A stretch of DNA of 64,000 bases from a candidate division WOR-3 bacterium (GTDB taxonomy: Bacteria > Hydrothermota > Tepidihabitantia > Tepidihabitantales > Tepidihabitantaceae): the NCBI GenBank assembly GCA_965649205.1, contig CBFGJV010000006.1, positions 26,015 through 90,014 on the forward strand, given 5' to 3'. Below the pieces are notes generated by a model. It was not told where the DNA came from. It ran no database searches and worked only from the letters and a program-made list of their open reading frames with translations. Numbering within the stretch: the stretch's first letter is position 1; each line of letters starts with the position of its first letter. Positions 2,420 through 61,002 of this stretch are shown piece after piece. The position numbers and the translations under genes were made by a program.

Positions 2420-2501
2420 AAGTCAAGAATCATACATAAGGTAGCAGGCGAACCAAAAATGGACGCATCCTTAGTTCTTCTGTGCCTGCTCACCCTGGGC
2501 T

Positions 2502-4033: not shown

Positions 4034-4062
4034 AACCGGAATCTGAAAGTATCCATCTGGCC

Positions 4063-5217: not shown

Positions 5218-5273
5218 AATTAGGCTACAATCCTAATACTGCTCTTTCTGCTGTCAAATTGTGAACTGTGAAC

Positions 5274-6032: not shown

Positions 6033-6132
6033 CTCTTCGCCTTCGCTTCAGTGTACTACTCGCACTCCTGCTGTCAAGATACCCCGACTTGCCTTGACCG
6101 CTTCCCTTGTCGTTGTTACACTGGCACTGATT

Positions 6133-8543: not shown

Positions 8544-8561
8544 ACCTCAGTCTATGCTCTG

Positions 8562-10951: not shown

Positions 10952-11027
10952 GTCAGAAAGCCTTTGTTTGCCTGCGTCAGTACGGTTTTTCGTTTTATTT
11001 AATCCTAAACAATAATCAGGAGGACTT

Positions 11028-19634: not shown

Positions 19635-20812
19635 ACAAATTAACAGTTAGAGACTTAGACGTACGGGCAAAACGCGTCTTTCTGCGCGTAGATTTCAATG
19701 TGCCCATGTCAGAAAATGGCCGGATACGTGACTTGGCACGTATTGTGGCCGCTCTGCCAACACTACAGTATCTCTTGGACCACGGAGCTGGGGTAATTCT
19801 GGCTTCCCATCTGGGTAAAGCCAAAGGCAGACCAGACCCCAGATATTCGTTGCACCCTATTCTACCAGTAATAGCCCAGCTGGTAGGTAGCCCGGTCGGC
19901 TATACCCCGGTCTATACTGGTGAAAACGCCGCTCAGGTAAGAGCCAGAGCCTTACCGGGCACTGTAACGTTACTAGAAAACCTACGTTTCCACCCCGGAG
20001 AAACAGCCAATGACCCCGGTTTCGCTAAGGAGCTGGCTTCCCTTGCCGACCTGTATGTCAACGACGCCTTTGGCGCCGCCCATCGCGCCCATGCGTCCAC
20101 AGTAGGGGTACCGAAGTTCTTTGGTCAGCCAGCAGCCGGTCTACTCATGGAAACAGAAATCTGTCGCCTTTCTCGCCTTCTCAATAATCCAGCCAGACCC
20201 TTTGTGGCCATAATCGGGGGGTCTAAAATATCTGACAAGGCCGGAGTACTTGCCAAGCTGCTTCCTCAGCTTGATCAAGCCATAATCGGCGGTGCAGCGG
20301 CTTTCAACTTCCTCAAAGCCCGAGGCATAAGTATAGGACGCTCTCTTTGGGAACCAGAGATTAGCGACACACTTGCCCCTCTCGCTCACGACCCCAAGCT
20401 AGTACTGCCCACCGATGTGGTAGTAAGCACCAGTCCGGACAACGAAGCCGGCGCCCTGGTTGTACCGGTAACGCGCATACCAGACGACCGCATGGGCCTA
20501 GACATCGGACCGCAATCTGCCGAGTTGTTTACCAAGGTACTACAGAAAGCCCAGACTATCGTGTGGGCAGGTCCGATGGGCGTGTTCGAACGGACAGCGT
20601 TTGCTTCCGGCACTCTGGCTGTAGCCAAAGCTATGGCCGAAGCAACGGAGAATGGCGCCAACACGGTAGTGGGAGGTGGCGACACAGGGGCTGCACTAAG
20701 CAAGTTCGGCTACGCACTCAAAATGACCCATGTTTCTACAGGCGGCGGCGCTTGCCTAGAATTTCTGCAGGGACGGGAACTTCCCGGGATAGCTGCACTG
20801 GCAGACAGGTGA
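19631..20812 (+). CDS. pgk: Phosphoglycerate kinase
   Basis: 393 aa. Contains RVDFNVP, the canonical PGK N-terminus, and GGGDT. Overlaps gap by 4 nt. Confidence 0.92.
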
Positions 20813-27542: not shown

Positions 27543-30500
27543 TCACTTAATTTCTAGATACTGCTGACCAGTGTGGCCAAAAACCTCAGGTGTATACATT
27601 TCCTCCACCCGCGTGGGTGGAAGGAAAAATCTGCCGCTTGTAAGCGCTCTAACCCGATAAGTCTCCGTGTGCACACCCTTGGTAAGGTAAGTAGCCACCA
27701 GAAGGTAACGGTCATGGTATGTTTCTTCGTAGTTAAAGCCGCCCCACCACTGTTTGTTCGATTTCGTAGAAAGAGGTTGAGTCTGACGTTCAGTGGCAAA
27801 GGAAGTATTAACTATCTCCCAGCCCGCAGGCAGAGGGTCGTCCAGCACCACAAATATCCGGTCCTGAGCAGTGTGTACTTTCAAAGTTATGATATACTCT
27901 GCTCCGCGTACGTAACCTGATACCTTGCCCACGGGCCTGATAACTTTCTCTACTCGGAATCCCTGATCCTTGGCCTTTAGCTCGCCCTTGCGGGCATAAT
28001 AAAGCCTGAGTCCATAATACATTCTGCCCTGTCCCTTTCTGCTGATGTTTACTGGCAAGGTCGTTTTTGCCAAACTATCAATCGGCAGGAAACGACGAGC
28101 AGTCTTCAACGAACGACCAGAGAATACTGCACTGAGCACGTCTTTACCTGCAATCCTGACTGAAGCTCTGAAATTCGGCCTCTCCTTTTCATACGTGCGG
28201 TAGAAAGTTGCCAACGCATCAAAAACACAGGCATTTTCTTGGGTCGTACGCCAACGGCCAACCCTACGCTCCGCAATCAGCCACCTGACTATTTTCTCTG
28301 CAAACTCAATCTGCCCTTGATGTTCTAGTAGCGCTTGCAGTACCACAGCCGTGGTTCGCACATCTGAATGAAACAGCCATCCTCCTTCTCTTTCTTCCTC
28401 ATAGTGTGCCATAGTCGGCTCGAGCTTGAGTTTGTTATTCATCGCCCGTATAAGATTACTCCTTGCCTCCGCATATACAGACTTAGGAAGCAAAGCTAGC
28501 GTCTTCAACAGGTATGCTTTACCATACACTGACATTTGGTCAACTTGGTCAAGCAAGAAAGGTAGGTGAGATTCTACTTTCTCCCCCCATAGCGCAATTG
28601 CATACACAGCCAGACTGCGGGCAGTGAGATACTCATCTGTTGAATACGGCCAGTCTGTCCCACGTTTACCGTAGTTGAGCCAGTTCGTCAGGTAACTCTT
28701 GCCTCGCTCGCTAACCCGGGAAGCCACTTGGAAACCCTTCTTCTCTGCCAGTGCCAGAACGTACATGGTATAAGCTGAAAGCCAAGGAGAAGGCTTTTCG
28801 TAGGCATAAGACTCGAGGTCTGGCCAGAAGTAAAAGCCGCCAGATTCATCCTGGTATCTGCTTACCACATCCAATTCAGCCTGCACAAACTTACGCAAAG
28901 CCGAGCCCCGCAACTCAGACAAACCAAATTGGTTTATCACATCCTCCCCGACAATAAAAGGCAGTATTTTGCTCATCCGCTGCTCCAGACATTCATAAGG
29001 ATACGTACGCAAGAATTCCAGCCCTCTTTCCAGTCCTGTGAGTCCCGAAGAAGAAACTGCAACCTCCAGCCCCCCGACTCCCGCAAAGACGTCAGGCGGC
29101 ACACTCACCGTCTGTTGTATCACTGAATCCATTGTCTGCTCGTACAGAGCCACTGCTTCTGAAACTACAGAAGGTATTGCTGGCAAAGTTACACGCAACC
29201 TGTCCCTTGCTCCCTCCCCACTCGCCTCAAAGGTAAACTCTGCCTCGCCTGCACCGATACAAAGGTAGTCAAACACAACTTCCACAGGACGGTTCGGCTC
29301 TACTTCCACTTGCCGACTTGTACTGCCATCAATCCTCACTCCCTTGGCAGCTGTTGCTTTCACCGTAACTTTCATCTTCTTGTCAGTGCGATTGTGCACC
29401 ATTACGCCGGCCGAAAAACGGTCCTCAGGCCGTATGAAACGCGGTAAAGAACTCACCAGAAGCAGCGGTTTATTAGTCTGAAACTTGCTTTCGCCCGAAC
29501 CAAACTTGTCAACTGTTGCCGCCACGGCCATTATCTGCCAAGTGGTGAGATTATCTGGCACACGAAAACGGACACGAGCTCTGCCGTTCTCATCGCTTCT
29601 CAAAGACGGTATCCAAAGCGCCGTTTCGAGAAACTTCTGCCGGTAGGCATAATCATACCCACCATCAAGCCCTACCCCATCTAATCCGCCACCACCTGCA
29701 GCCTCACCTTTCTCACCGTAATTGCGCTGACCAATCACATGCAGCCTGGACTCAGCTGTTACCACCGAAAGAGATCGAGAGGCGTAAAACATACTGAACG
29801 GATCCGGCGTCCTGTAGCCAACCAGCTTTAAGACGCCAAGATCAACGACCGCAAGCGATACTTCTGAGCGAACTCCTCTACCTTTCTTGTCCAAGACTTG
29901 CAAGTCAATTTCTACCTCCTGCCCTGGCTGGTACTCGGTCCGCCCCGTTTTCACAACCACCGTCAACTTCTTGGCTTCCGGATCAACTGGCAACTCTACA
30001 TATCCAATCTTGAAGCCCGGTTTACCCAGGTCCTGGCCTTCGTCTCCAAAGCTGTTATAGGCAGTTCTCCCTTTCAGCAGAACTACCGAAACAAATACGT
30101 TGGGAAGATACTCTTCTTTTATCGGTATTCTGATCAAATCCGCATTGCCGCTAATCTCTGTTCCAAAGTAGTCCAGTACCAGCTCCCGCTCAACCGTCAC
30201 CATAGCCTTAACCCCGGTCCACGGTGATTTTACAAGTATCTTCGCAGTATCGCCTGGCTTATAAGCATTCTTATCCCTCACCAACTCAATCAGGTCGTCA
30301 TCTCGTATCATCCACGCAGCTTCGCCCTTGCCTGCAACCCAGAACTCCAGATCGGTTCTCGCAGTATTATTCCGTCTGTCTCTCATTTCACACTTGCACC
30401 AGTATTGACCTGGCTTGTCCGGTCTGAACCACTTGCGCACCGCTTCGGACTCTGTTCTGACCTCGAAAGTGGCTACTTTCTCGTCTACTTTCTCGCTCAA

Positions 30501-33197
30501 CCAAGAATACCTACCCCCGGTCTGAGCCTTACGCGCCGAACGCCATATCCGCCGGAACACCGTAACCGTCACGTTTTCACCACTGGCTGGTCTACCGTCT
30601 GGGAACGCAGCCACTAAATCTAAACCTACAGAATCACCCAGTTCTACCATACCCCTGGTCATCTTTACGCCTACATAGCGTTCTGCTCGGTGGACGATAT
30701 ACGATTCTCGACCGGTAATACTCCTCTGGTTAGTGGCAGTAACCGTCGCTTCGCAGGTCACACGACAGCTGGAAAGCCGCCTCCCTAAATTCAGCTTAGT
30801 TTGTACCTGCAAATGCCCCTGGACGTCTAATTTGCCGCTCCCTGAACTCAGCAGACTTATTGCTTGTTCAGTCTCATCCATGTACGCGCCCCAGCTGAAC
30901 CCTTCGTATCCGGGAGGCGAGAAAGACGTAGGTTCCAAACTCACCGTCCAATCCACCTGTTCGCCTGCCATCTGAGCTCCAAACAGATATCTGGCGTTGA
31001 TATGCGCCGTGAACATGTCACCCGCAACATAGCTATCTTTGTCGCCCTTTACTGTGACTTCGAACTCTGCTGGCCTGTATGCCTCAACCCGAAAATGTCC
31101 ATAGAATTCGTGCTCACCCTGAGAAAAAACAATACTGTAGTAACCGGTGAAAGCCTCTGCCCCCAGTGGCAAAGAAATATCAAAGCTACCCCAGTCAGAC
31201 AATCTCACCCGCCGGGTGAAAATCTCCTCATCCCGCGAATCTGTTACTCGTACCAACCCATCCCTGCGACTGGGAATAATCCACCTGCCTCGCTGCTTGT
31301 GGCGGATAATACCCTTAATGCGAACCGTATCCGCCTGTTTGTACAGCCCCTTTTCGGTGTAAATGAAGCCCGAAGGTTCGGTAGGGTCAGGAGACCAATC
31401 ATAGCTCACGCCAAGCTCATAAGGATGAATTCCAGTGCCCCATTCCGAATGCACAAAACCTTCTCCTCCCGGTTCCCGGACAAACATCCACAAACGAGGA
31501 CTATCCCACTCGCTTCGCGCCTTAACACCCAGCATAGCCCATCCAGGGAACACCACAAACCCGTTCTTATCCGTGCGACCAGTCCAGACGGACCGGTTGG
31601 CATCATCTCGCAACTCAACTGTGACTCCTGCTACAGGTGCGCCGTCAACCAGACGAGTCACATAACCTAGCCCGTTTTCTGGTGAAAACTTTGCTGTCAG
31701 CCCAAACGGTGATACCTGCAGAAAAGCTCGACGATACCTTGCACCCCGTTCTGGTTGGTGAAGCATATCCAGTTCACAGAACAAAAAGCCGGATTTCCTT
31801 CCTCCTAATCCGGGCGCTATATCCAGAGGCAGTAGCGTACGTCTGTTCCTGACCAGCTTTGGTCTCCAAACAGTCTGATAATTAAAACCGGTCTGCCAGA
31901 TTCGCTCCAATTCGCCAGGCTTCTCTTTCTCCTCCTCCCCATGACCTTCGTACCGCTTCCGCCAGAAGGGAATAACTTCCCCGGCCTCCAGCCTCCTCAT
32001 CCTTACCTTCACTGATTCTACATTCACCATCCATACCGGATGACGCAACTCTGTGGCAGACTCCACAATACCCAAACCAACAGGCATACCCAGGGCTGGG
32101 CGATAGGAGACTGTCTTCAGTCGCAAACGGACGTCTTTACCCAGGCGATTGCCAAAACGGTCAGTAAGCTGGCGGGAAAGAATTACCTCGTACTGCGTCT
32201 CTGGAGCAAGTTCTACATAGAGGTACTGCTGCGTGGTTGCAAAATCATATTCGTACCGAGGCAACTTCACTGGAGGAGAGAATTTCACGTGCCTGAGTAA
32301 CTCTTCTTGCGCTACAGGATTGGAAAAAACAAATACCAGCGGATCTTCCGGGTGATGAGCGGACGCCCTCTCCAATCTTTCCAGCCGAAAGTGATTGAAG
32401 GTACGAAACTCTATTCTGCGTTCCTTCTCTAATCCCAAGTTGCCCTCAGCCGCCAATAATCCCTCCGCCAGGATAATCTGGTACTGAGTCTGTTTTCTCA
32501 ACTGCACTTTCGAGGTAAGCACTAACACCGAACTAAGTTTTTCTGGTTCATACCACCATGCATCTTCCGTTCTCTCCTTGGGTCTTGGATGACGGAGTCG
32601 AAAAGGCACCCTGGTTCCGTCGCCCGCCACCAACTGCAGAAATTTCTGGGCACGTTTTGGGTCCATCGGCATGTTAAAGTGAAGCCAGATGTTTGGCTTG
32701 AGTGTTACAAACTCCGCACCATGAAAGGGAACAGAATATTCCAGGCTAGGTCTCACAGTCTCAAACTCAAACTCGTAGTCCTGCTTGAGCATCCGTCCAC
32801 TCAACGAACGGACGCCTCGCGGTATTTTCACTTTAAATCTGGTCGCTGTGGGTAGAACAGTCGCCGGGCGAAAGACGACAGTATTTGGACTCAACCAGTC
32901 ACAAAAACCTGGGACTTCCGGGTCAAGGAGCAGTGGAAAATTCTCCTCCTCAGAGACTTCGCCAAGAGACACCATGGCATCATCGAAAGTCACCAGGATT
33001 TCGCTTGCCTCTTCTGTTTTCTCCAGCACCCCTACGGGTGTCGCAGCCACAATCCGCAGAGAATCGGCCCGACGCAATTCCTCTTCACTAAATACAGGCA
33101 TCGCTACACGCCGAGCCAAGGGCTGTCTAGGTTTCTCGCGGGGACAACTACCGACAACAACTAGGACAGCGCACAGAACCCATGCTCTTGTCCTCAC
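27543..33197 (-). CDS. yfhM: Bacterial alpha-2-macroglobulin (YfhM/ECAM-like) with intact thioester motif; probable lipoprotein
   Basis: 1884 aa. Contains the CLEQ thioester motif (…TYPYECLEQRM…). The N-terminus (VVVGSC) is lipobox-like. GTG start with AAGGAGGA SD. Paired with pbpC as in Proteobacteria. Confidence 0.85.
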   Translation of the reverse strand: MRTRAWVLCAVLVVVGSCPREKPRQPLARRVAMPVFSEEELRRADSLRIVAATPVGVLEKTEEASEILVTFDDAMVSLGEVSEEENFPLLLDPEVPGFCDWLSPNTVVFRPATVLPTATRFKVKIPRGVRSLSGRMLKQDYEFEFETVRPSLEYSVPFHGAEFVTLKPNIWLHFNMPMDPKRAQKFLQLVAGDGTRVPFRLRHPRPKERTEDAWWYEPEKLSSVLVLTSKVQLRKQTQYQIILAEGLLAAEGNLGLEKERRIEFRTFNHFRLERLERASAHHPEDPLVFVFSNPVAQEELLRHVKFSPPVKLPRYEYDFATTQQYLYVELAPETQYEVILSRQLTDRFGNRLGKDVRLRLKTVSYRPALGMPVGLGIVESATELRHPVWMVNVESVKVRMRRLEAGEVIPFWRKRYEGHGEEEKEKPGELERIWQTGFNYQTVWRPKLVRNRRTLLPLDIAPGLGGRKSGFLFCELDMLHQPERGARYRRAFLQVSPFGLTAKFSPENGLGYVTRLVDGAPVAGVTVELRDDANRSVWTGRTDKNGFVVFPGWAMLGVKARSEWDSPRLWMFVREPGGEGFVHSEWGTGIHPYELGVSYDWSPDPTEPSGFIYTEKGLYKQADTVRIKGIIRHKQRGRWIIPSRRDGLVRVTDSRDEEIFTRRVRLSDWGSFDISLPLGAEAFTGYYSIVFSQGEHEFYGHFRVEAYRPAEFEVTVKGDKDSYVAGDMFTAHINARYLFGAQMAGEQVDWTVSLEPTSFSPPGYEGFSWGAYMDETEQAISLLSSGSGKLDVQGHLQVQTKLNLGRRLSSCRVTCEATVTATNQRSITGRESYIVHRAERYVGVKMTRGMVELGDSVGLDLVAAFPDGRPASGENVTVTVFRRIWRSARKAQTGGRYSWLSEKVDEKVATFEVRTESEAVRKWFRPDKPGQYWCKCEMRDRRNNTARTDLEFWVAGKGEAAWMIRDDDLIELVRDKNAYKPGDTAKILVKSPWTGVKAMVTVERELVLDYFGTEISGNADLIRIPIKEEYLPNVFVSVVLLKGRTAYNSFGDEGQDLGKPGFKIGYVELPVDPEAKKLTVVVKTGRTEYQPGQEVEIDLQVLDKKGRGVRSEVSLAVVDLGVLKLVGYRTPDPFSMFYASRSLSVVTAESRLHVIGQRNYGEKGEAAGGGGLDGVGLDGGYDYAYRQKFLETALWIPSLRSDENGRARVRFRVPDNLTTWQIMAVAATVDKFGSGESKFQTNKPLLLVSSLPRFIRPEDRFSAGVMVHNRTDKKMKVTVKATAAKGVRIDGSTSRQVEVEPNRPVEVVFDYLCIGAGEAEFTFEASGEGARDRLRVTLPAIPSVVSEAVALYEQTMDSVIQQTVSVPPDVFAGVGGLEVAVSSSGLTGLERGLEFLRTYPYECLEQRMSKILPFIVGEDVINQFGLSELRGSALRKFVQAELDVVSRYQDESGGFYFWPDLESYAYEKPSPWLSAYTMYVLALAEKKGFQVASRVSERGKSYLTNWLNYGKRGTDWPYSTDEYLTARSLAVYAIALWGEKVESHLPFLLDQVDQMSVYGKAYLLKTLALLPKSVYAEARSNLIRAMNNKLKLEPTMAHYEEEREGGWLFHSDVRTTAVVLQALLEHQGQIEFAEKIVRWLIAERRVGRWRTTQENACVFDALATFYRTYEKERPNFRASVRIAGKDVLSAVFSGRSLKTARRFLPIDSLAKTTLPVNISRKGQGRMYYGLRLYYARKGELKAKDQGFRVEKVIRPVGKVSGYVRGAEYIITLKVHTAQDRIFVVLDDPLPAGWEIVNTSFATERQTQPLSTKSNKQWWGGFNYEETYHDRYLLVATYLTKGVHTETYRVRALTSGRFFLPPTRVEEMYTPEVFGHTGQQYLEIK

Positions 33198-49275: not shown

Positions 49276-50127
49276 ATGCGCCTTGCTGTAATAACAGCCT
49301 TTGCAGTCTGCGCCTCGGCACTGACCGTTCGAGCAAATCTCCTGGTAAATCCGGATTTTTCCGGATGGACCAATCCGAACAGACCTACAGGCTGGTTTGT
49401 GGAAGACACAACCAAAGCCAGGGTCGAACAAGCTACTAACCCGGTCCGTAGCGCTCCCTATGCGGTTAAACTGACCCGGCGTGTAGCAGGCACTGGCAAC
49501 AACGCCGGTATCATACAATATGTAGCGGTATCTCCCAATCTCGACTATACGCTATCCGTATGGTTTCTGGACGACGACGTGAACGCCAGCGGCGGCTGCG
49601 GCATCAGTTGGTACACCCAAGATACTACCTTTATATCAAGTACCACCAATGCCTATACCGATTCGGCTATTCGCACCTGGCAGAAAGTAGTAAAAACGGC
49701 CACTGCACCGGCCACTGCGGCTCTGGCTAAAGTATACTTCCGAGTGTACGGCTTCACTGGCAGCCCGGCCGGGGGAGTAGTCTATCTGGATGACGCCAGT
49801 TTTGTGCAGGGGTCAGGTGTAACAGAGGACAAATTCTACCCTGCCGCACAGACCTGTCGACTAAGAATCAGCCCCAATCCGACACCAGGCCAAACTGTAA
49901 TGCAGGTAACTCTGACTCAGCGAGAACAAGTTAAACTCGCGGTATACGATCTGACTGGCAGAATCGTCTCCTCTGTTTTCTCTGGCGTCCTGAATGCGGG
50001 TTCGCATTCTTTCTCCTGGAAAGCAATTGATCTGGATAACAAACCTCTGTCTAACGGTCTTTATTTCGTGTTAATGTCAGACGCCAGCGATAAGGTTGCC
50101 GTAGCCAAGCTGCTCATCGAACGCTAG
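49276..50127 (+). CDS. Secreted CBM4/9-like carbohydrate-binding protein with a T9SS (Por) C-terminal sorting domain
   Basis: Signal peptide. NLLVNPDFSGW…YTLSVWF…VYLDDASF is the CBM_4_9-like jellyroll. The C-terminal ~80 aa (KLAVYDLTGRIVSS…NGLYFVLMSD…KLLI) match the T9SS CTD pattern. GAAGGAGG SD 6 nt upstream. Confidence 0.7.
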   Translation: MRLAVITAFAVCASALTVRANLLVNPDFSGWTNPNRPTGWFVEDTTKARVEQATNPVRSAPYAVKLTRRVAGTGNNAGIIQYVAVSPNLDYTLSVWFLDDDVNASGGCGISWYTQDTTFISSTTNAYTDSAIRTWQKVVKTATAPATAALAKVYFRVYGFTGSPAGGVVYLDDASFVQGSGVTEDKFYPAAQTCRLRISPNPTPGQTVMQVTLTQREQVKLAVYDLTGRIVSSVFSGVLNAGSHSFSWKAIDLDNKPLSNGLYFVLMSDASDKVAVAKLLIER

Positions 50128-50142
50128 AAAACCGGCGTTGAA

Positions 50143-50658
50143 GTGTCTAAACCGAACAAAACGATGAAGGCCAGACAACCAACTGCTCTGGAAGCAATAA
50201 ACAAGCTTGGCAAGAAAGTTGCTACCATGACCCAGGCCGAGCTGGCGCGAGCGGTAGGTGTATCCCGCGAACGAATTCGTCAGCTGGTGCCGCGTATGAA
50301 GATAAAACCAGGCCGGCGGGTGCGCGCCTGGCATCGGACCTTGTCAAAAAAGGTCTGTGCTGAGATGGCACGCCTGCATGACAAGGGGAAATCTCTGGCT
50401 GAAATCGGCCGGCAGTTCGGTGTGAGCGACTACCACGTACGCGAAGCCATACGGCAGGTACGCCTGCAAATCGAACCAGCAGGGAAGATTCAACGCCTGC
50501 GCCGACTGGACGCTCTACGTCGACTTCTGGACCAGGGACTCACCTTTGAGCAGGCCTGCGACAAGCTGGGATTCAGTGCGTTGCAGCGACGGCGCTATCG
50601 TCGCCAACTGGGTCTGTGCTGGGACGGAAAGAAAACTGTTCCGGAGAAAAAAGCGTAG
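50143..50658 (+). CDS. Hypothetical DNA-binding protein with three tandem helix-turn-helix motifs
   Basis: 171 aa, highly basic. Repeats: MTQAELARAVGVSRERIRQL, KSLAEIGRQFGVSDYHVREAIRQV and LTFEQACDKLGFSALQRRRYRRQL. Confidence 0.55.
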   Translation: MSKPNKTMKARQPTALEAINKLGKKVATMTQAELARAVGVSRERIRQLVPRMKIKPGRRVRAWHRTLSKKVCAEMARLHDKGKSLAEIGRQFGVSDYHVREAIRQVRLQIEPAGKIQRLRRLDALRRLLDQGLTFEQACDKLGFSALQRRRYRRQLGLCWDGKKTVPEKKA

Positions 50659-50983: not shown

Positions 50984-51274
50984 TTACCAGCGGTTGCCGG
51001 AATCACCGCCAGACCTGCCGCCTTCCTTGCGCGAACGCGCCTCGTTAACGGTCAGGGCTCGGCCGTTCATCTGGTAACCGTTCAGGGCAGAAATAGCTGC
51101 CTGAGCTGCTTCGTTGTTTGCCATCTCTACGAAGGCAAAACCACGCGAACGGTCGGTGAATTTGTCTTTGACTATCTCAGCCGAAGTTACTTCACCATGC
51201 TTGCTGAACAGCTCATGCAGCTGCTCTTCTGTAGCGCTGAAGGGAAGATTCCCTACGAAAATGCGCTGACCCAT
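50984..51274 (-). CDS. RRM-domain RNA-binding protein
   Basis: RNP-2 IFVGNL and RNP-1 RGFAFVEM. Gly/Arg-rich tail. 96 aa. Confidence 0.85.
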   Translation of the reverse strand: MGQRIFVGNLPFSATEEQLHELFSKHGEVTSAEIVKDKFTDRSRGFAFVEMANNEAAQAAISALNGYQMNGRALTVNEARSRKEGGRSGGDSGNRW

Positions 51275-51605: not shown

Positions 51606-53765
51606 TTGAACAAAGTGCTGACCGCGGTCCTGCTTACTGCTGGTGTGCTGCTAACAGCCGCACAGGGTAACCTGTTGACCAATGGCGACTTTGAACAGCC
51701 GCTCACGGTCGGCTGGAGCCAAGAGTTTGATGATAGCCAGGGGTCATACGTAATCACCCGTGATACAACACTGCAACCAGACCCGGATTTCGAAGTGCGC
51801 ATATATAAGTACTTGCGCTACTACGCCAGGTTGAAACAAACAGTAGCCGTGCCTGGTACAAACGTGCGTTTCTCTGGCGCGGCCAAACTGGTTGCCACTA
51901 AAGGTCCGACCAGCGGTTACTATGCCTATGCTGCCATAATTCTGGAATATCAGAACGCCGGCGGAGAAGTTCTGGGCCGTACCTGGATAATGAAAAAGAT
52001 AGGCGACTTCAATCCCCAGAATACCCCCACTCAGCACTACATACTGACTATAAGCGATGTTTGGGAGAACTACGGTTTTGTTCTCGCTGATGAGTTAGCC
52101 AATCTGCCAGGCATCAACCCCCGGGATATTTCCCGGGTAAGTGTCGTTGTGGAAAGCTACGGCACCGGCGCTTCAGGTTGAGGGGGATGTGAAACCACGA
52201 CGGAGGTCTCCGCCGATGACATAGCCCTCACATACCTGGGCGCTGCTCCATTTCTCACCTACCAGTCAAACACAATTATTGACCCGCCACCCGGAAGAAA
52301 TAACAACGGCCGATTTGATCCGGGCGAGAGCGGCGATATACGTGTGAAAGTGAAGAATGTAGGCAACCAGGAGGCACACACTGTCACCGCAGTTCTGCGG
52401 TCAGGGCATGATCTGTTTGTCGTCACCGACTCTACCGGTAGTTTTGAAGACATACCAGCCGGTGGCAGTGCTGAGAACGATGCGGACCGGTTCTCAATTC
52501 AAGTCAACAGCAGCATGCGTCCCGGCACGACAGTCCTCTGCACCCTCCTGCTGCACTGCGAGAACTGGGGATACGACTGGAAGTATGTTTTCACCCTCCA
52601 GGTAGGCACGGCACCGCGGCCAGGCCAATACGTGGTTACGCTAGATACCGGCTCAGTTTCGCTTTCAGTCTGTGCCATAGGCTCGCTGGGCTTCAACGAG
52701 CCTGGCGGAACTGGTAACGGCTTCCGCGTGCCCAAGACCGTCGCCAACACTCTTTACTATGGTAGCATAATGGCTGGGAATTCAGACGCCTATCTGGTTG
52801 ACCACTTCTTCTCGCGACCTGCTTCTGGTCCCACACACAAGGACTGGGCGATGGAAGAGAGCTTCAGGTTCATATTCCCCGGTTCACCGGCAGATATGCA
52901 CTGGATGAACACAATGAACGATGCAGGTCACACTTCGCCCCGCCGGCTGCGGACAGAGCAGCACTGGTATATGAATGCCAATCCCACTAATTCCAACTGG
53001 ACAGTTGTAACGCTGGAACTGAAGAACGACGGCACCAGCCCGCTGAATGAAATGTACGCCGGCATCATAGGCGATTTTGATGTTGGGTCTTCGCCTACGA
53101 CCAATATTGTCGGTTCAGATGAAACCCGGCGTGCGATCTGGATGGCACAGGCCACAAGCGAAAACCCCACAGTAGGCTTTGTTCTCCTGGACCCGCCGAT
53201 GTTCGCCAACCTGACTGCGGTAGACCACGCGCGCTATGTGTATCCTGATTCGGCTATGACCGATGGTATGAAGTGGCGTCTGCTCAATGGTACCATCTCT
53301 TTACGTCAGTCTAATCGCAGCTATGACTGGTCAGTGCTGGTCTCGGCCGGACCGTTCAACCTGCCAATTGGTTCAAGTCAGAAACTGGCCTTCGCAGTTG
53401 TAGGAGCAACAAGCCGGGCCGGCTGGTTTGCCGCGGTCGAGAGCGCGCAGAAGTGGTACGACGCTAACCTGGTAGGTGTAGAGGAAGAAAAACCGTGCCC
53501 TGCCTACATCGAACAGTCTCTGCTACTTCGGCCCAATCCTTTCTCTCGTGCCACTTACGTGTACTACTTCGCACCGACAGCATCCCGCGTATGCCTGTCC
53601 GTGTATGACATCTTGGGCCGGGAAATAGAACGAACGTATTTTGATGCTGGTGCAGGCGTAAACCGCTACGTCTGGCAACCTAAAAACGTTACTCCTGGTA
53701 TCTACTTCGTGAAAGCGACCACACCAAACCACGAAACTACAGCTAGAGCTCTTCTGCTGGAATAA
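51606..53765 (+). pseudogene. T9SS cargo protein (CBM4/9-like N-domain, CARDB-like middle, Por C-terminal sorting domain) interrupted by a single in-frame TGA at 52179-52181
   Basis: The ORFs 51606-52181 and 52344-53765 are in the same frame. The frame reads open across the gap, and the translation remains protein-like (…GESGDIRVKVKNVGNQEAHTVTAV…). Signal peptide with an NLLTNGDFEQP N-terminus. The C-terminus (LLLRPNPFSRATYVYYFAPT…GIYFVKATTPNHETTARALLL) matches the T9SS CTD. Confidence 0.7.
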
Positions 53766-53858
53766 GAAGATCCGCTCGGTGTTATGGATGGGGCGCTCTG
53801 CGGAGCGCCCCCGACTTTCTGTGCCATTTTGACTTACAGCCAGCCGGTACTATTGTTT

Positions 53859-56243
53859 ATGAACAAGGCAGAGATGTCTATGATGTCGGCACTAGTGCTG
53901 GCCGGAGCGGCTCTGGCGCAGCCGATTGGTGCGGACGCGGCCATCAAATGCAGAGGCGGGCGAGCCGGTGGAGTTCGCGGACGCTGTCCTGTACTCGCTG
54001 CCGGACGGCTCCCAGGTGCAGGGCACGATCACAGATAAAACTGGCAGTTTCGCCCTTACCGCGCTTCGTCCCGGACGTTACTATCTAGAGGTCTCTTTCA
54101 TCGGATATCAGACGAAAACAGTGGACAATATTGAATGCGCGGAGGGAGCCAGACTGGACCTGGGTCGGCTGGAATTGCAGGCAAAGCCGGTACCGGTAGA
54201 AGGCGCGGAGGCAACAGCTACCACTCTTACCATTTCTCGCAAGCTGGACAAGATTGTGATTGACGTTACCAAACTGCTCAATGCCGGGTCGGGCACCGCG
54301 GTGGATGCTCTGAAAAACGCGCCGTCGGTGAAGGTGAACATTGACGACAACGTCACCCTGCGCGGCAGTTCCAACTTCAAGGTACTGGTGGACGGCAGAC
54401 CGAGCGAGCTGGAGCCACAGGACGCCTTGAAGCAGATTCCGGCCGCGACGATCGACAATCGGCCAGGTACGAGGCGGATGGGCCCGCGGGTATCGTCAAC
54501 ATACTGCTGAAGAAGCAGAAGGGTCCGGGCATCAGCGGGATGGCTAACGCCAACGCAGGTCTGAACAACCGGTATGGCACTGACCTCCTGGCCGGGTATC
54601 GTGAGGGGAAAGTCAACGTCTACGGCGGCGGCAACATCAACCGCTTCTCGTGGCTGAACCGCAGTGAGTCAAAGAGGAAGATAGTCACAGGAAGCGATAC
54701 TCTTGTTACAGCGAGCAAGGGTTCGGGCCGCGGGGGCCCGGTCTTTGGTGGCGGCCGGGCTGGTGGAGACATCGAGCTGGGGCCCAGGGATAAGGTCGGT
54801 CTGTCGTGCCGGATGCGCGGTTTTCGCACCGGCGGTGTCTGCGGTTCGGATGCAACAGAGCGTCGTCTGCCTCAAAATTCGGTCAGGCACTATACGACCG
54901 AGGAAACCTGGCTTTGGACCGGCACAGCACTGTTCGGCATGGCCGATTACGAGCACGGGTTTGATACCAGCGGCCAGAAGTTGACCGGACGGCTCTACCT
55001 CATCAATCGTTCCGGCGGCTCCAGCGGGTTGCGCCAGGAGATGGAAGCAAAAGATACAGTCTATGGTAGACGCAATGAGCAGGGAAGGCCGTGGCTGCGT
55101 CTTACCGGTGAACTGGGGTACGAGAAACCGGCACTGGCCGGCGGCAAGCTGGAATCGGGCTACGAAGGTAATCTGGAACGCACGTCGGACGATATGAAGC
55201 AGTGGCAGTACGATACAGCCGCGCACGCCTACGAGCCGGATACATTGTCCAATCACTCCAACTCTGGAGCAGACCAGGTGCACGCGGCGTACGCCACATG
55301 GTCAACAGAGTGGCGCGGGCTGGGAATACAGCCCGCTCTGCGCGTGGAGTATGAGGGCCGCGCGGTCGAGGTATTGGACACGGATTCGACCTACCTGGTG
55401 AACCGATGGGACGCATTTCCCAGCCTGCACTTGTCTTACGGCCTGCCCGCGAATCAGCAAGTGAGCGCGAGCTATTCCCGTCGGGTGAACCGGCCAAGCA
55501 TCTGGGAGCTGGACCCGTTCCCGAACTGGCAGGGGCCGCACAGCGTGTACCAGGGCAACCCGCTGCTTTCCCCTGAGTTCACCGATTCCTGGGAGGCCGG
55601 GTACGAGTTGTCGTTCGGACAGAACTCGGTCAACGCGGGTCTGTACTACCGTGTCACGCGCGACCTGTTTCAGTGGGTGACGATGAAGTATGCTCCGGAC
55701 ACGGCTGCACTCTTGACTACACCGCGCAATGTGGGACAGGACTATTCGCTGGGAGGCGAGTTCTCAGCCAATCTCAATCCGTGGAAGTGGCTGACGCTCG
55801 CGCCCAGCGCGGACCTGTACGACTATCGCGTTACCGGCAATCTGCTCGGCCAGGACTTCGCCCGTTCGAGTTTCGCCTGGAGCAGTTCCCTCAGCCTGAC
55901 TCTGCGCGCACCCTTTGGCACACAGGTACAGTTGGATGGAAACTACACTGCTCCAACGGTCACGTCTCAGGGCAGAGAAGGAGGCTGGTTCGATACCGAT
56001 GTGGCGGTCAGGCAGATGTTCTTGAACCGGACATTGTCAGTTACCCTACGGATCGGACACATCTTCGGCGGTGTGCCCTGGAGAACTGAATCAGCGGGCC
56101 CGGGGTTTTCCGCCAGCTCATCCTATTTCCACGACGAAAGGGTGGTGACTCTTTCCATAAGCTACAACCTGAACAACTTCCGGCCCAACCCGAAAATGCG
56201 CGCTGGCGAAGGCGAAGAAATGCAAGGTGGTCCGGGTCGCTGA
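53859..56243 (+). pseudogene. Outer-membrane TonB-dependent-receptor-like beta-barrel protein (CarboxypepD_reg + plug-like + barrel) disrupted by two frameshifts
   Basis: Three consecutive ORFs lie in frames 0/1/0. The first carries the signal peptide (MSMMSALVLAGAALAQPIGADAA). The second carries the carboxypeptidase-regulatory-like and plug motifs (VQGTITDKTGSFAL…; DALKNAPSVKVN…LRGSSNFKVLVDGRP). Frame 0 resumes upstream of the third ORF's ATG with conserved …ARYEADGPAGIVNILLKKQ, and the barrel ends …SISYNLNNF. Confidence 0.6.
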
Positions 56244-56307: not shown

Positions 56308-57216
56308 TTGAGTACCAAAAGCGAATCTGTTTCGCCCCAGTCCATCCGGCCCTATGTGTACTATCCGGGCTGCACGCTCTACACCAAGGGACGGAGTCTG
56401 GACCTGTGCGCGCGCAAGGCAGCGGAGCGCGTAGGATTCAGTCTGGCTGAGATGCAGTCGTGGACCTGCTGTGGAGCGATATACAACACCAATTCAGACG
56501 ATTTCGCGGCGCAGGTTGGGCCGGTGCGTAATCTGGCCAGGGCGAGTCAGGCAGGCGACAAGCTGGTTACCCTGTGTGCCGCGTGTTACAACGTGCTGAA
56601 ACGGGCGAATGACAACCTGAATGCGAGGGGAAACGAGGAGACGCGGGACAGGCTGCTGGCATTCGTGGACGAAAAGTTCGAGCGGCCGGTAGAAGTGGTG
56701 CATTATCTGGATGTGCTGAAAACTGACATAGGCTGGGAGAATCTGAAGCAGAAGGTGACAAAGTCTCTGGCTGGACTGAAGGTGGCGTCCTACTACGGCT
56801 GTCTGATGGTGCGCCCGGCCTCGGTGCTGAGCTTCGACGACCCGGACAATCCCAGCGTGATGGACGAACTGGTGTCAGCTCTAGGCGGCCAGCCGGTAGA
56901 CTATGATTTCAAGACAGAATGTTGCGGCGGGTATCTGGTTACGAACCAGCGCGCCACCGCGGTGGAGTGTTCGCGCCGAGTATTGGACAACGCGGCCCAG
57001 ACCGGTGCAGAGGTGGTGGTGACTACCTGTCCTCTTTGTCAGTACAACTTGGACGCGTTGCAGAAAGATATGGGCCGGGAAAGCCAGATGCCGGTTTTGT
57101 ACTTCACCCAGCTTCTCGGGCTTGCAGTCGGGCTGGACGAGTCAGAGCTTGCCTTGGACTATAACCAGACAGATGCGAGGCCGCTCTTGAAGTCCAAGGG
57201 TCTGCTTACCGCGTGA
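56308..57216 (+). CDS. hdrB: Heterodisulfide reductase subunit B-like protein (two CCG domains)
   Basis: YYPGCTL…C…CCGAIY and YYGCLMVRP…CCGGYL…CPLCQ are the two Cys-rich CCG domains. The TTG start is uncertain. Confidence 0.78.
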   Translation: MSTKSESVSPQSIRPYVYYPGCTLYTKGRSLDLCARKAAERVGFSLAEMQSWTCCGAIYNTNSDDFAAQVGPVRNLARASQAGDKLVTLCAACYNVLKRANDNLNARGNEETRDRLLAFVDEKFERPVEVVHYLDVLKTDIGWENLKQKVTKSLAGLKVASYYGCLMVRPASVLSFDDPDNPSVMDELVSALGGQPVDYDFKTECCGGYLVTNQRATAVECSRRVLDNAAQTGAEVVVTTCPLCQYNLDALQKDMGRESQMPVLYFTQLLGLAVGLDESELALDYNQTDARPLLKSKGLLTA

Positions 57217-57220
57217 GGTT

Positions 57221-58540
57221 GTGAGCATGGCAACCACCAGAAAGGCATTGGTCATCGGCGGCGGCATAGCGGGCATTCAGGCGGCTCTGGACATAGCCAA
57301 CGCAGGAGTAGAGGTAGTGCTGGTGGAACGCAAGTCATCTATCGGCGGGCATATGGCGCAGTTGTCCGAGACTTTCCCCACCCTGGACTGCTCGCAGTGC
57401 ATCCTCACGCCGAAGATGGTGGACGCGGCTCAGCACCCGCGCATCAGGCTGATGACCTACTCCGAAGTGGAATCGGTCAGCGGCTCGACCGGCGATTTCC
57501 AGGTACGGATCAGGCAGAAGGCCAAATATGTGGACTGGGATGTATGCAACGGTTGCGGCCTGTGTATGACCAAGTGTCCGGGCAGGACAGAGTCTGAGTT
57601 CAATGAGGGACTGGAGAAACGCACGGCGATACACAGGCTATTCCCTCAAGCAGTACCGAACAAACCGGTCATAGATCGCAACTCGTGCATCTATCTGCAG
57701 AAGGGCAAATGTCGGGTATGCGAGAAAATCTGCCCGCCCCAGGCAATAAGGTTCGAGGACCAGGACCGGCTAGTTCAAGAAAACGTTGGCGCTATCGTAG
57801 TAGCTACCGGATTTGAGCTGCTTCACCTTAAAACTTATGGTTCCTACGGACTGGAACGGCATCCGGACGTTCTCACCGGTCTGGAGTTTGAGCGGCTGCT
57901 ATCAGCGTCCGGCCCGACCAAGGGAGAAGTGAAGCGACCTTCGGACGGCAAGGAACCCAAACGTGTTGTGTTTGTGAAGTGCGCGGGCTCAAGAGACAGG
58001 GAACGGGGCGTACCATACTGCTCCAAGGTGTGCTGCATGTACTCGGCCAAGCACGCGCTTCTGTACAAGCACCGGGTGCACGACGGCGAGGCCATCATTT
58101 TCTACATTGACGTGAGGACAGCGGGTAAGGACTTTGAGGAGTTCTACAAGCGGGCAACAGACGAGGGTGTTATCTATGTGCGCGGCAAAGTGTCCAAAAT
58201 TTTCCGCCGGGGCGACAAGATGGTGGTATGGGGTTCGGATACGGTCGCAGGCCGGAAAATGGAAGTGGAAGCTGATTTGGTGGTATTGGCCACAGCGATG
58301 ATTCCAGATTCCCATGCCAGCTCGATAGCAGATATGCTGGGTATCCAAGTAGATCAGTATGGATTCTTCACTGAAGCGCAGTACAAACTGAAACCGGTAG
58401 AAACAAACCGGCCAGGCATATTCCTAGCTGGCGCTTGCCAAGGGCCGAAGGATATTCCAGAAACAGTAGCTCAGGGCTCAGCCGCTGCAAGCAAGGTTCT
58501 GGAGCTTCTGGCACAAAGACAGGAGGAGAAGCGTGGCTAA
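57221..58540 (+). CDS. hdrA: Heterodisulfide reductase subunit A-like FAD/Fe-S oxidoreductase (short form, no MvhD or C-terminal ferredoxin domain)
   Basis: FAD motif ALVIGGGIAGIQAALD. Inserted ferredoxin-like clusters CNGCGLCMTKCP and CRVCEKICPP. 439 aa. Confidence 0.78.
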   Translation: MSMATTRKALVIGGGIAGIQAALDIANAGVEVVLVERKSSIGGHMAQLSETFPTLDCSQCILTPKMVDAAQHPRIRLMTYSEVESVSGSTGDFQVRIRQKAKYVDWDVCNGCGLCMTKCPGRTESEFNEGLEKRTAIHRLFPQAVPNKPVIDRNSCIYLQKGKCRVCEKICPPQAIRFEDQDRLVQENVGAIVVATGFELLHLKTYGSYGLERHPDVLTGLEFERLLSASGPTKGEVKRPSDGKEPKRVVFVKCAGSRDRERGVPYCSKVCCMYSAKHALLYKHRVHDGEAIIFYIDVRTAGKDFEEFYKRATDEGVIYVRGKVSKIFRRGDKMVVWGSDTVAGRKMEVEADLVVLATAMIPDSHASSIADMLGIQVDQYGFFTEAQYKLKPVETNRPGIFLAGACQGPKDIPETVAQGSAAASKVLELLAQRQEEKRG

Positions 58541-59522
58541 GCCGAGGTTCGGATTTTACTGGGCGGCGTCGTGCGGCGGATGCGAAATTTCAGTATTGGA
58601 CACGAACGAAAAGCTTCTGGACATTGCGGCCAGGGCTGAAATCCTGCTCTGGCCAGTGGCAATGGATACCAAAAAGGCGGATGTGGAGAAGATGCCGGAC
58701 AAGCACCTAGACACAGTGTTCTTCAATGGTTCGGTGCGTAACTCAGAGCAGGAGGAATGGGCGCACCTGCTTCGGCGCAAGGCTAAGACACTGGTGGCGT
58801 TCGGATCCTGCGCGCATCACGGCTGCATCCCCGGACTGGCCAACCTCTATAGCCGAGAGGAAATCTTCCGCACTATTTATCGCAACGAACCCTCGCTCGA
58901 CGAATCAAGGGGAATCGAACCGAAGACAAAAGTTACAGTAGCGGAGGGAGAGTTGACCCTGCCGGAGTTCTTTGACCTGGTTAGACCGCTGGACCAGGTA
59001 GTGGAAGTTGACTATTATCTCCCGGGGTGTCCACCGCCAGTACCGATTGTCCTAAAAGCGATGGACACAATAATATCCGGTAGTCTGCCGGCAAAAGGCA
59101 CTGTGCTTGCGCCGACCAAAGCGTTGTGCGACGAGTGCTCGCGGAACGAAAGTCTGCCTAAGAAGATGCCGGACGTGAAACGTACCTGGGAAGTGCAGGC
59201 AGACCCCAAGGTGTGCTTTCTGCGGCAGGGCATCATCTGTATGGGCCCGGCTACGCGCTCCGGGTGCGAGCAACGTTGTATCAACGGCAACTGGCCCTGT
59301 ACCGGTTGTATGGGCCCGGTTCCGGAGGTGAAAGACCAGGGCGCAAAGATGATTTCCGCCCTGGGTGCAATACTCGCTTTAGACGAGGAAGCAAAACTCA
59401 CTGAAGACCAGACCAAAGCTCTGATAGCGAAAGTCAAAGATCCGGTAGGCACGTTCTATATGTACGGCTTGGCCAGTGCAACCATAAACAAAAGACAACG
59501 GAAAGAGTCTGCTGGAGCTTAG
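58533..59522 (+). CDS. mvhG: [NiFe]-hydrogenase small subunit, MvhG-like (group 3c)
   Basis: Proximal-cluster motifs CGGCE, GSCAHHGC and GCPP. C-terminal medial/distal cluster cysteines. Overlaps hdrA by 8 nt. Confidence 0.8.
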   Translation: MAKPRFGFYWAASCGGCEISVLDTNEKLLDIAARAEILLWPVAMDTKKADVEKMPDKHLDTVFFNGSVRNSEQEEWAHLLRRKAKTLVAFGSCAHHGCIPGLANLYSREEIFRTIYRNEPSLDESRGIEPKTKVTVAEGELTLPEFFDLVRPLDQVVEVDYYLPGCPPPVPIVLKAMDTIISGSLPAKGTVLAPTKALCDECSRNESLPKKMPDVKRTWEVQADPKVCFLRQGIICMGPATRSGCEQRCINGNWPCTGCMGPVPEVKDQGAKMISALGAILALDEEAKLTEDQTKALIAKVKDPVGTFYMYGLASATINKRQRKESAGA

Positions 59523-59523
59523 T

Positions 59524-61002
59524 ATGGACAGACGCATAACTGTTGACCCGATTACACGACTGGAAGGACATGGAAAGATAGAAATCTTTTTGGACGAGCA
59601 CGGCGAGGTAGACAACGCCTATCTCCAAGTTCCTGAACTACGTGGTTTCGAGCAGTTCTGCGTGGGCAGGAAGGCTGAAGATATGCCCCAGCTTACCTCA
59701 CGCATCTGTGGTGTCTGTCCGGTCGCCCACCACTACGCTGCTACCAAGGCACTGGATATGGCCTTTGGCGTAGAACCAACCGCAACCGCAAGGAAGCTGC
59801 GCGAGCTCATCTACGCCGGTTATATCATCTATGATCACATTTTGCACTTCTACTTTCTGGCCGGGCCGGATTTTGTGTTAGGACCGGACGCACCCAAGGA
59901 AAAGCGGAATATCCTCGGTGTTATAGAAAAAGTAGGACTGGATGTGGCAAGAGAAGTAATTAAGCACCGAGCCTATGGTCAGAAGATAACAGAGATTCTC
60001 GGGGGCAAACCAACCCATCCTGTGTCGGGCGTTCCCGGAGGCCAGACCAAATCACTAGACGAAGATGGACGGAAGCAAATAGAAGAAATGGCGAAGTCCT
60101 GCGTAGCATTCGCTGAATTCAGTTTGGAGCTTTTCCGCAAGACGGTATTGGAAAACAAACAGTATATGAACCTTGTCACTGACCCCCGTTTCAGTCTCAA
60201 ACTGTACAATATGGGTCTTGTAGACGAGAAGAACCGGGTGAACTTCTACGACGGCAAAGTACGCGTAACTACCCCAAACGGTGAGGAGTACCTCAAATTT
60301 GAGTTAAAGGATTACCTGAAGCATATCCGGGAACACGTTCTGGAATGGAGCTATGTGAAGGTACCTTACCTTGCGGCAATTGGCTACAGGGGACTCACTG
60401 ATGGCCCGGAATCTGGCATCTATCGTGTAGGACCTCTAGCTCGCTTGAATGCGGCCGAAGGAATGGCAACACCCAAAGCAGATGCTGCATACCGAGAAAT
60501 GTACAACACTTTCGGCACCAAACCGGTACACTCTACGCTTGCATTCCACTGGGCTAGGCTTATAGAATTGCTCTACGCTTCCGAACTAGCGCTTGCACTT
60601 GCCTCGGACACCAACATCACCGGAACAGACATCCGCAATATGGACTACAAGATGCAGGAGCAGGGCATCGGCGTGGTAGAGGCGGCGCGGGGAACTCTGT
60701 TCCATCACTACTGGCTGGATGAAAACAGATTGGTGAAGAAAGTGAATCTGATTGTGGCCTCAACCAACAATATGGGCCCGATCTGTATGTCAGTCCGAGA
60801 CGCAGCAAGGAGTCTAATCCACGCCGGCAAGGCAGACGACGGACTGTTGAATACGGTAGAAATGTTCTTCCGTGCCTACGACCCGTGCTTTGCCTGTGCT
60901 AGCCACACCCTCGGAAGCGCACCGCTGGAAGTCAACCTGCGCCTCTCAGATGGCACATTACTAGAGACCCTGACAAACCAATCCAACCGGGATACACATT
61001 AA
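59524..61002 (+). CDS. mvhA: [NiFe]-hydrogenase large subunit, MvhA-like
   Basis: N-terminal RICGVC and C-terminal DPCFACASH Ni-Fe ligand motifs, plus RLEGHGKI. 492 aa. Confidence 0.88.

Follow-up and report, generated by a model that had tools for sequence, protein, structure and literature searches.

Does a TGA that lies in the middle of a long open reading frame (ORF) end a gene, or is it translated? The question is raised by a locus in a stretch of 64,000 nucleotides (nt) from a candidate division WOR-3 bacterium (contig CBFGJV010000006.1, positions 26,015 to 90,014), hereafter called the window. Window positions 51606-52181 hold a plus-strand ORF of 191 codons with a TTG start, whose stop is the TGA at 52179-52181, and the same frame (frame 1) is open for 527 codons beyond it, the first true stop being the TAA at 53763-53765. 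The peptide at the junction reads ...YGTGASG-[TGA]-GGCETTTEVSADDIAL.... An initial annotation, made from the sequence alone, had described two halves that share a frame and read through the TGA without any other stop, and this layout and the context of the TGA are borne out by our analysis. Of the four explanations it had listed (a nonsense mutation, a sequencing or assembly error, programmed read-through and selenocysteine), we consider the last very probable: 51606-53765 on the plus strand would be one intact gene of 719 codons plus a stop, in which the UGA at 52179-52181 (residue 192) is read as selenocysteine (Sec) via SelB and tRNA-Sec, directed by a selenocysteine insertion sequence (SECIS) hairpin located downstream. 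The frame is broken by the TGA alone, and all relatives have the same architecture and the same frame.

Conservation of the in-frame TGA

A comparison with orthologues, proposed with the initial annotation, gave a uniform result. At the DNA level TGA occupies one column in all 68 non-redundant members of the family, TAA and TAG never occur there, and the rare homologues with a sense codon carry Cys. The frame remains open for at least 104 codons past the TGA wherever the contig allows, and the identity of the N-terminal domain among the relatives reaches down to about 27%. With TGA making up 47% of stops, the naive chance of finding it in all 68 members would be 0.47^68, or about 5e-23, a figure that ignores relatedness.

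Unbiased scans were made using as query only the protein upstream of the TGA. Among GTDB species representatives, all 17 family loci had TGA at the column followed by an in-frame extension, and in JGI metagenomes TGA was found at the column in 43 of 47 loci; of the four exceptions, two matches were frameshifted, one ran into a contig end and one was a protein outside the family. At the protein level, the 13 matches of a single-query search were all 180-195 amino acids (aa) long, and the 102 matches of a profile search measured 126-222 aa, with none continuing beyond the TGA column. A full HMMER scan of 1.84 billion representatives returned 557 matches, and about 134 of the best 150 end at the TGA column, with lengths of 180-200 aa. 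The named sources of the relatives are metagenome-assembled genomes (MAGs) of candidate division WOR-3.

Individual relatives illustrate how far this conservation extends. An independent Logan assembly (L001), about 88% identical, has the same TGA in the same context; a WOR-3 MAG (L002), about 60% identical in the C-terminal part, reads ...YTYSG-TGA-GTPEAKVFADDVSL... and contains a second paralogue with a TGA of its own. The TGA is likewise kept in L003, and in four complete tandem paralogues and a fifth, cut copy in L004. Members at 33-39% identity keep it too, and their downstream modules differ entirely, for example a 113-aa tail of the type IX secretion system (T9SS) alone or a 568-aa module. 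Among homologues of the downstream part are 'proteins' of 473-523 aa that stand alone and start just past the junction.

The tandem arrangement in L004 (positions 2085-11500; also present in L005 and L006) consists of at least five paralogues of the proposed selenoprotein gene placed head to tail, with sizes upstream and downstream of the TGA of 188+513, 188+523, 186+494, 189+510 and 185+... aa. Each complete copy has both the TGA and the hairpin described below.

A covarying hairpin downstream of the UGA

The initial annotation had also pointed to a small hairpin, ACGGAG-GU-CUCCG at 52200-52213, 19 nt past the TGA, which proves to be a conserved and covarying SECIS-like element when 64 sequences are aligned. 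With its outermost positions included, the upper hairpin of the window (G-A-CGGAG-GU-CUCCG-C-C) spans 52199-52214 and has its GU apex at 52206-52207, the apex G being nt 28 counted from the U of the UGA. It is the sole match in the window to the family pattern. Every TGA of the family is followed by GGCGGAG-GU-CUCCGCC or a variant of it, so that the family can be recognised in DNA by the signature TGA, 14-20 nt, GGCGRAG-GU-CUYCGCC.

Covariation was counted over a 7-base-pair (bp) helix in an alignment of 64 distinct junctions, i.e. 448 cells. The helix is paired in 99.6% of these cells, and double-sided changes occur in five of the seven pairs, amounting to 44 cells. None of 500 column shuffles matched the observed percentage of pairing, the number of double-change cells or the covariation score, and sliding the partner by one to three columns lowered pairing to 26-66%. 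Some of the compensating changes alter the protein: in 23 sequences G-C becomes A-U by way of an exchange of E/S for K/F, and in the RVL variants two adjacent pairs are swapped. Others are purely synonymous on both sides, namely GAG/GUC to GAA/GUU in 15 sequences and GCG/UCC to GCA/UCU in three. Codon choice within the stem is correspondingly narrow, the first Ala being GCG in 60 of 63 sequences and the second GCC in 62 of 64, and the codon preceding the stem ends in G in 62 of 64 sequences even though ten amino acids are encoded there. No such restriction applies to the Asp codon that borders the stem (GAT 33, GAC 31), and two codons beyond it all four TCN codons are in use for a Ser. Thus, the hairpin is under selection at the RNA level.

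The geometry of the element is that of bacterial SECIS (bSECIS) hairpins. The bSECIS criteria cited by a 2026 review (PMC13188914) are a loop of 3-9 nt with a G in its first two positions, an upper stem of 4-16 bp, a distance of 16-37 nt from UGA to loop and a minimum free energy (MFE) of -7.5 kcal/mol or lower. The hairpins of the family have a 4-nt loop, GGUC or AGUU, closed by a covarying pair, a stem of 6-7 bp (in the window 5 bp, a mismatch and 1 bp) and a spacing of 17, 20 or 23 nt, all within these bounds, and the window reaches the energy bound through its 60-nt fold (-18.7 kcal/mol, against -6.0 for the upper hairpin alone). According to Itoh et al. (PMC4605307), SECIS hairpins have stems of 6-8 bp and a conserved loop G about 20 nt past the UGA; in our family the loop G, counted from the U of the UGA, is at nt 22 in 48 sequences, at nt 25 in eight and at nt 28 in another eight, among them the window. 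The SECIS of Escherichia coli fdhF, UGACACGGCCCAUCGGUUGCAGGUCUGCACC, has the same A-GGUC-U apex as the family, with the G and U at 23 and 24. As in fdhF and other genes decoded through SelB and SECIS, an in-frame UGA is followed by a hairpin within the coding region, here with its G-U at nt 22-29 and so about as far from the UGA as in fdhF.

In 466 kb of related loci, a strict scan required an in-frame TGA flanked on either side by 60 or more open codons and followed at 18-32 nt by a hairpin with a GU apex and a stem of 6 bp or longer; it yielded 82 sites, all of them belonging to this family and none to any other type of gene. A lower stem, formed by CCCUCA at 52225-52230 and UGAGGG at 52179-52184 and thus taking in the UGA itself, is tentatively predicted, appearing only in the MFE fold of 52179-52238. 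A blastn search of the junction against E. coli genomes found no match.

Decoding of the UGA and the competing explanations

If the UGA encoded Sec, homologues with Cys at the same place would be a familiar counterpart, and such Sec/Cys pairs are another feature that the family shares with known SelB-dependent genes, alongside the loop, stem and spacing of its hairpin. Indeed, a deep scan recovered a minority of uninterrupted relatives that align with the family. In P0138, a protein of 278 aa with a T9SS tail, the sequence YDSHS-C-GDGWAEVCVDN stands against YDNGT-U-GGGWAEVSADN of the UGA type, and P0194 also has its Cys exactly at the Sec column, so that Cys homologues aligned to the UGA, one of the marks of a bacterial selenoprotein gene, are present. 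P0166, P0199 and P0204 have a Cys within the same loop; in more distant relatives the loop is shorter and has no Cys. At the DNA level, P0138 (L087) and P0166 (L088) have a TGC codon and the hairpin is gone, which indicates that UGA and hairpin occur together and are lost together. Of the four options of the initial annotation, selenocysteine is the one that the evidence supports.

The distribution of further cysteines is consistent with a partner for the proposed Sec. In 50 of the 68 members a Cys in a CWP motif is found about 85-90 residues upstream and there is no Cys within five residues of the Sec, whereas 13 members have no CWP Cys and instead a local one, arranged as U-G-G-C (as in the window), U-H-G-C, C-U or C-x-x-x-U. 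Three members have both kinds and two have neither. This mutual exclusion is strong (Fisher p = 1.7e-9, uncorrected for phylogeny, with at least three distinct local motifs involved) and suggests, at the level of sequence, a Sec-Cys (selenylsulfide) pair with an exchangeable partner. The U-G-G-C motif to which the initial annotation had drawn attention is thus real, although specific to one subfamily. It occupies 52179-52190 in the window, where the Sec probably pairs with Cys195 (52188-52190). For the more common arrangement the CWP Cys would have to be close in space to the Sec loop. The junctions of L003 and L037 (U-G-A/G-G-H) have neither a CWP Cys nor one near the Sec; they have a His four residues past the Sec, which may serve as a third kind of partner or mark a variant that binds metal.

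From the conserved UGA, the selected hairpin, the Sec/Cys homologue pairs and the domain layout we infer the following course of expression. SelB with Sec-tRNA(Sec) would bind the hairpin at 52199-52214, and Sec would be inserted at 52179-52181. The product would consist of a signal peptide, a beta-sandwich resembling a carbohydrate-binding module (CBM), passenger domains and a T9SS C-terminal sorting domain; at full length it would pass the inner membrane via the Sec translocon, after which the T9SS would export it or anchor it to the surface. In most relatives the partner of the Sec would be the Cys of the CWP motif elsewhere in the domain. The resulting surface-exposed selenylsulfide or selenol site in a lectin-like head may bind or react with an extracellular ligand, and the role of the Sec-Cys pair may lie in redox chemistry or in chalcogen or metal binding. 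Termination at the UGA would leave an unstable fragment of 191 aa. As this fragment lacks a core strand and the secretion tag, the supply of selenium would gate the amount of full-length protein.

Several observations weigh against decoding as Sec. The genes selA, selB, selC and selD were found neither in the 64-kb window nor in the 466 kb of related loci: ARAGORN detected no tRNA-Sec in either, Pfam searches of 32 of the 57 long window ORFs identified no SelA, SelB or SelD, and tblastn with the E. coli SelA, SelB and SelD gave nothing in the related loci. The search for sel genes suggested with the initial annotation thus came back empty over this range, and its one positive counterpart is a Lost City WOR-3 MAG that Table S5 of PMC9469722 lists with selA, selB, selD and grdA/B. 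Other candidate selenoenzymes in the window, a [NiFe] hydrogenase and an HdrA-like protein, use Cys. The hairpin overlaps a conserved peptide motif, so its conservation is partly at the protein level, and the hairpin of the window is the weakest of the 64, with ACG in place of GCG producing an A.C mismatch (52200/52213) that is unique to it. Its upper part (20 nt) has only the -6.0 kcal/mol given above, and the 60-nt fold has a z score of -1.4. The SECIS of E. coli fdhF scores -1.2 in the same test, and because single-sequence folding does not discriminate, we relied on covariation instead. In Rfam, the region 52000-52400 matched no SECIS model even at permissive E-values, the only two hits being due to chance. 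Finally, a selenoprotein that is extracellular and does not have a thioredoxin fold is, to our knowledge, unusual.

The alternative that fares best is programmed read-through of the UGA, in which the hairpin would stimulate near-cognate decoding by a standard residue (e.g. Trp, Cys or Arg) and keep short and long products at a fixed ratio. A conserved UGA with a hairpin downstream would also be expected of such a signal, and the failure to find Sec machinery in the window and the related loci is in keeping with it. Under read-through, however, a standard residue should often replace the UGA, which happens in none of the 68 members, and the rare sense homologues carry Cys specifically. The apex of the hairpin is a G-U of the SelB type and lies at a SelB-type distance, the compensating gain and loss of partner Cys points to a chalcogen residue, and a short product would be missing a core strand. 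We therefore regard read-through with a standard amino acid as much less likely than selenocysteine.

Lower still is the probability that the locus comprises two real genes, with the TGA as the conserved stop of a secreted protein of 191 aa and the downstream protein translated separately by coupling or re-initiation. This is how gene callers and NCBI present it, the halves being annotated apart, with downstream halves such as MEO0082060.1 ('T9SS type A sorting domain-containing protein') and upstream halves deposited as 'hypothetical proteins' of 180-200 aa. Yet TGA is the stop in every case, the downstream ORF never shifts out of frame, the called downstream starts vary among orthologues and sit inside conserved coding sequence, and the residues right after the stop constitute the missing last strand of the upstream domain, being disordered in a model of the downstream part. 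Cargo of the T9SS has to pass the inner membrane first, but a signal peptide is absent from the downstream piece, and a C-terminal domain (CTD) from the upstream piece. Furthermore, the Cys homologues are single uninterrupted proteins. Orthologues that end at the TGA and are followed by a separate gene, the pattern which the initial annotation took to speak against a single gene, thus describe the output of gene callers rather than biology, because the sequence from the TGA to the called start is coding and conserved and includes the last strand of the upstream domain.

That the gene is a pseudogene with a recent nonsense mutation, or that 52179-52181 was wrongly sequenced or assembled, can practically be discarded, although the neighbouring TonB-dependent receptor gene looks damaged (14 and 22 nt short compared with L001) and this assembly or strain thus carries some lesions. 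Both options of the initial annotation are refuted because the TGA is conserved at one column across 68 relatives with identities down to about 27%; it is identical in independent samples, independent assemblies and paralogues across deep divergence, and coding conservation continues on both sides of it.

Equally negligible is a changed genetic code in the whole lineage, with UGA standing for Trp or Gly (code 4 or 25), which the position of the UGA in a Gly-rich loop (SG-U-GG) might recall from lineages with UGA as Gly, because TGA ends 27 of the 57 long ORFs of the window, more than TAG (16) or TAA (14), among them the pgk gene (19631-20812), a full-length match to the Pfam PGK model that the initial annotation had correctly cited as evidence of a genuine TGA stop; several read-through products of relatives also terminate at TGA. 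Only one other in-frame TGA junction in the window is striking, at 27543-27545, where, within 25200-33197 of the minus strand, an ORF of 1884 aa and a class A penicillin-binding protein of 780 aa lie in the same frame with one TGA between them. Recoding was ruled out for this case, which is a plain stop that overlaps a GTG start, with a membrane anchor encoded next.

Domain architecture, related systems and neighbouring genes

We favour the selenocysteine reading, and the structure of the protein fits a single polypeptide. A signal peptide, MNKVLTAVLLTAGVLLTAAQ, is predicted at 51606-51665 from a hydrophobic helix of low predicted local distance difference test (pLDDT) score at residues 3-17, ahead of the first domain, its extent being inferred; an equivalent hydrophobic N-terminus precedes NLLxNGDFE in every member of the family. 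The first domain, a CBM-like beta-sandwich minus its final strand, begins with NLLTNGDFE and is encoded by 51666-52178 (AlphaFold2 (AF2) model, pLDDT 88.4, predicted template modelling (TM) score 0.82). In Foldseek it resembles jelly-roll and CBM-type domains at TM-scores of 0.4-0.55 and 11-18% identity, namely CBM61, CBM11, CBM22, the sugar-binding domain of Fbs1 and phage tailspike modules. We take the N-terminal strand 'NLLxNGDFE' and the C-terminal strand 'xVxADDIsL' to be typical of CBM-type or galactose-binding-like modules. No Pfam family was found for the upstream half, nor any family of NCBIfam release 20, where the best match was at chance level (E 0.037); the domain is CBM-like and not a CBM in the sense of a curated CBM family.

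The UGA lies within the beta-sandwich, in a loop just ahead of the last strand, which completes the domain. This strand, EVSADDIAL, is encoded past the UGA at 52203-52229, and the motif A-x-V-x-A-D-D/N to which it belongs is kept after the UGA in all members as well as in the sense-codon homologues. In a model of the downstream part by itself, the initial 20 residues come out as disordered (pLDDT below 50), in keeping with their being part of the upstream domain. The predicted signal peptide is present only in the upstream half and the T9SS tag only in the downstream half; by itself, neither would be a sensible protein.

Beyond the first domain, the modelled strands of residues 25-125 of the downstream part form an Ig-like, CARDB-like beta domain (52254-52556). 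The initial annotation had spoken of a CARDB-like segment; an Ig-like domain is indeed modelled, although the match to the Pfam model of CARDB is faint (E 0.25). It is followed at 52578-53471 by a large beta-sandwich passenger module, whose AF2 model recalls, at low TM-scores in Foldseek, the beta-supersandwich domains of glycoside phosphorylases. The gene ends with a T9SS type A C-terminal sorting domain and the TAA stop (53532-53765), where TIGR04183 matches residues 451-520 of the downstream part with 35.1 bits against a cut-off of 23 and Pfam PF18962 matches the C-terminus (E 2e-5). The labels 'T9SS cargo' and 'CBM-like N-terminus' of the initial annotation hold in that there is a sorting domain and a CBM-like fold, both at the level of fold only.

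The passenger module of about 300 aa is also common to WOR-3 C25 (gingipain-family) peptidases of about 1190 aa, with whose C-terminal region it is 50-54% identical; the C25 homologues P0005-P0013 combine PF01364/PF08126 with this module. The module can thus be attached either to a protease or to the proposed Sec-bearing head. Across the family the passengers vary or are absent, those found including SGL-like, Kelch, Reelin-B, ThuA-like and CARDB domains, and where a complete read-through extension was tested (nine cases), it always terminated in a T9SS-type tail, Por_Secre_tail or FlgD_ig, a tenth extension running off its contig. Proteins from other lineages, P0185 (2727 aa) and P0208 (1862 aa), contain one to three internal copies of the beta-sandwich without a Sec/Cys loop, so the Sec loop looks like an elaboration specific to the T9SS/WOR-3 clade.

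The recoding mechanism appears to be the ordinary bacterial one and the protein family to be new. The window protein is unrelated to FdhF and to the 119 selenoprotein families catalogued in PMC13188914, none of whose tabulated entries resembles the family, and NCBIfam and Pfam have no model for it. Unlike in fdhF-type genes, the Sec would be located in a loop of a lectin-like beta-sandwich and not in the active site of a redox enzyme, Cys forms are rare and not the majority, and the Sec pathway of the window genome is putative. The texts on BSepDB and deep-Sep make no mention of T9SS or WOR-3, and full-text literature combining T9SS/type IX secretion or WOR-3 with selenoprotein or selenocysteine offered nothing relevant beyond the table in PMC9469722.

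Selenoproteins of the envelope or outer membrane have been predicted in silico, i.e. an FCYXU-type TonB-dependent receptor (NF049945), a GSU2204/MtrB-type barrel, DsbA/DsbG-like proteins and a selenobacteriocin. Like these, the protein proposed here would leave the cytoplasm, and several of them carry Sec next to or near Cys (CxxU, UxxC); in contrast to it, none is T9SS cargo and none has its N-terminal domain. With known T9SS type A cargo, including the WOR-3 C25 peptidases, it shares the succession of signal peptide, passenger and TIGR04183 CTD, the curated cut-off being passed, and the exchangeability of passengers, but unlike reported cargo it has a proposed selenocysteine. It has the jelly-roll fold of CBM-type and galactose-binding-like modules such as CBM61, CBM11, CBM22 and Fbs1, but the similarity to CBM families is at fold level only and sugar binding is putative. 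The family is unusual in that its products would go outside the cell, in its fold, in a Sec that is nearly obligate and in how it has expanded in WOR-3. As far as we know, nearly all bacterial selenoproteins function as redox enzymes inside the cell or in the periplasm, and most of them have thioredoxin-like folds and abundant Cys homologues. It is probable, in our view, that we have here a first family of selenoproteins that reach the cell surface by type IX secretion, formed around a lectin-like module with an exposed Sec and a movable Cys, expanded in tandem and combined with many passengers in WOR-3.

If this is true, selenium biology would extend to the cell surface and to a new fold, a T9SS-exported beta-sandwich, and WOR-3, an uncultured and poorly known phylum, would join the selenium-using lineages. 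Selenium-based chemistry could then take place outside the cell, where sulfur species, metals or thiol ligands might for example be captured or reduced, and selenium availability would control part of the surface proteome. On a practical level, a systematic annotation error would have to be corrected, as at least 100 clusters at 90% identity have been deposited as 'hypothetical proteins' of 180-200 aa, the error would also affect most of 244 representatives at 50% identity (E up to 1e-10), and downstream halves have been deposited as separate, N-terminally truncated proteins, e.g. 'T9SS sorting domain proteins'. The uniform and covarying hairpin would furthermore provide a clean natural test set for SECIS prediction.

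The genes around the locus include further T9SS cargo. An unrelated cargo ORF (FlgD_ig + Por_Secre_tail, 283 aa) lies 1.5 kb upstream at 49276-50127 and is followed by a multi-HTH protein at 50143-50658; in the related loci, too, there are many CTD-bearing proteins. These proteins are the only, and indirect, sign of a T9SS machinery (PorK/L/M/N, SprA/Sov, PorV, PorU) in the genome. Directly upstream of the gene and on the opposite strand is an RRM-domain RNA-binding protein of 96 aa, at 50984-51274 (minus strand) in the window and at 199-489 (minus strand) in L001.

Downstream, at 53784-56243, a TonB-dependent receptor (CarboxypepD_reg + Plug + OMP_b-brl_3) is split across frames. Its counterpart in L001 (3099-5504) is one intact gene of 801 aa, in comparison with which the window is missing 14 nt near 53948 and 22 nt near 54459, 36 nt in total, so that 170 codons in the middle are read in a different frame from the two ends. 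These breaks reflect either gene decay or an assembly artefact. At 56308-61002 follows an Hdr/Mvh-like cluster with a CCG-domain protein, an HdrA-like flavoprotein and the small and large subunits of the [NiFe] hydrogenase. The large subunit ends in DPCFACASH (DPCFAC), and in the HdrA-like protein Cys occupies the place at which Sec occurs in some lineages, so the classic selenoenzymes are present in the window as their Cys forms.

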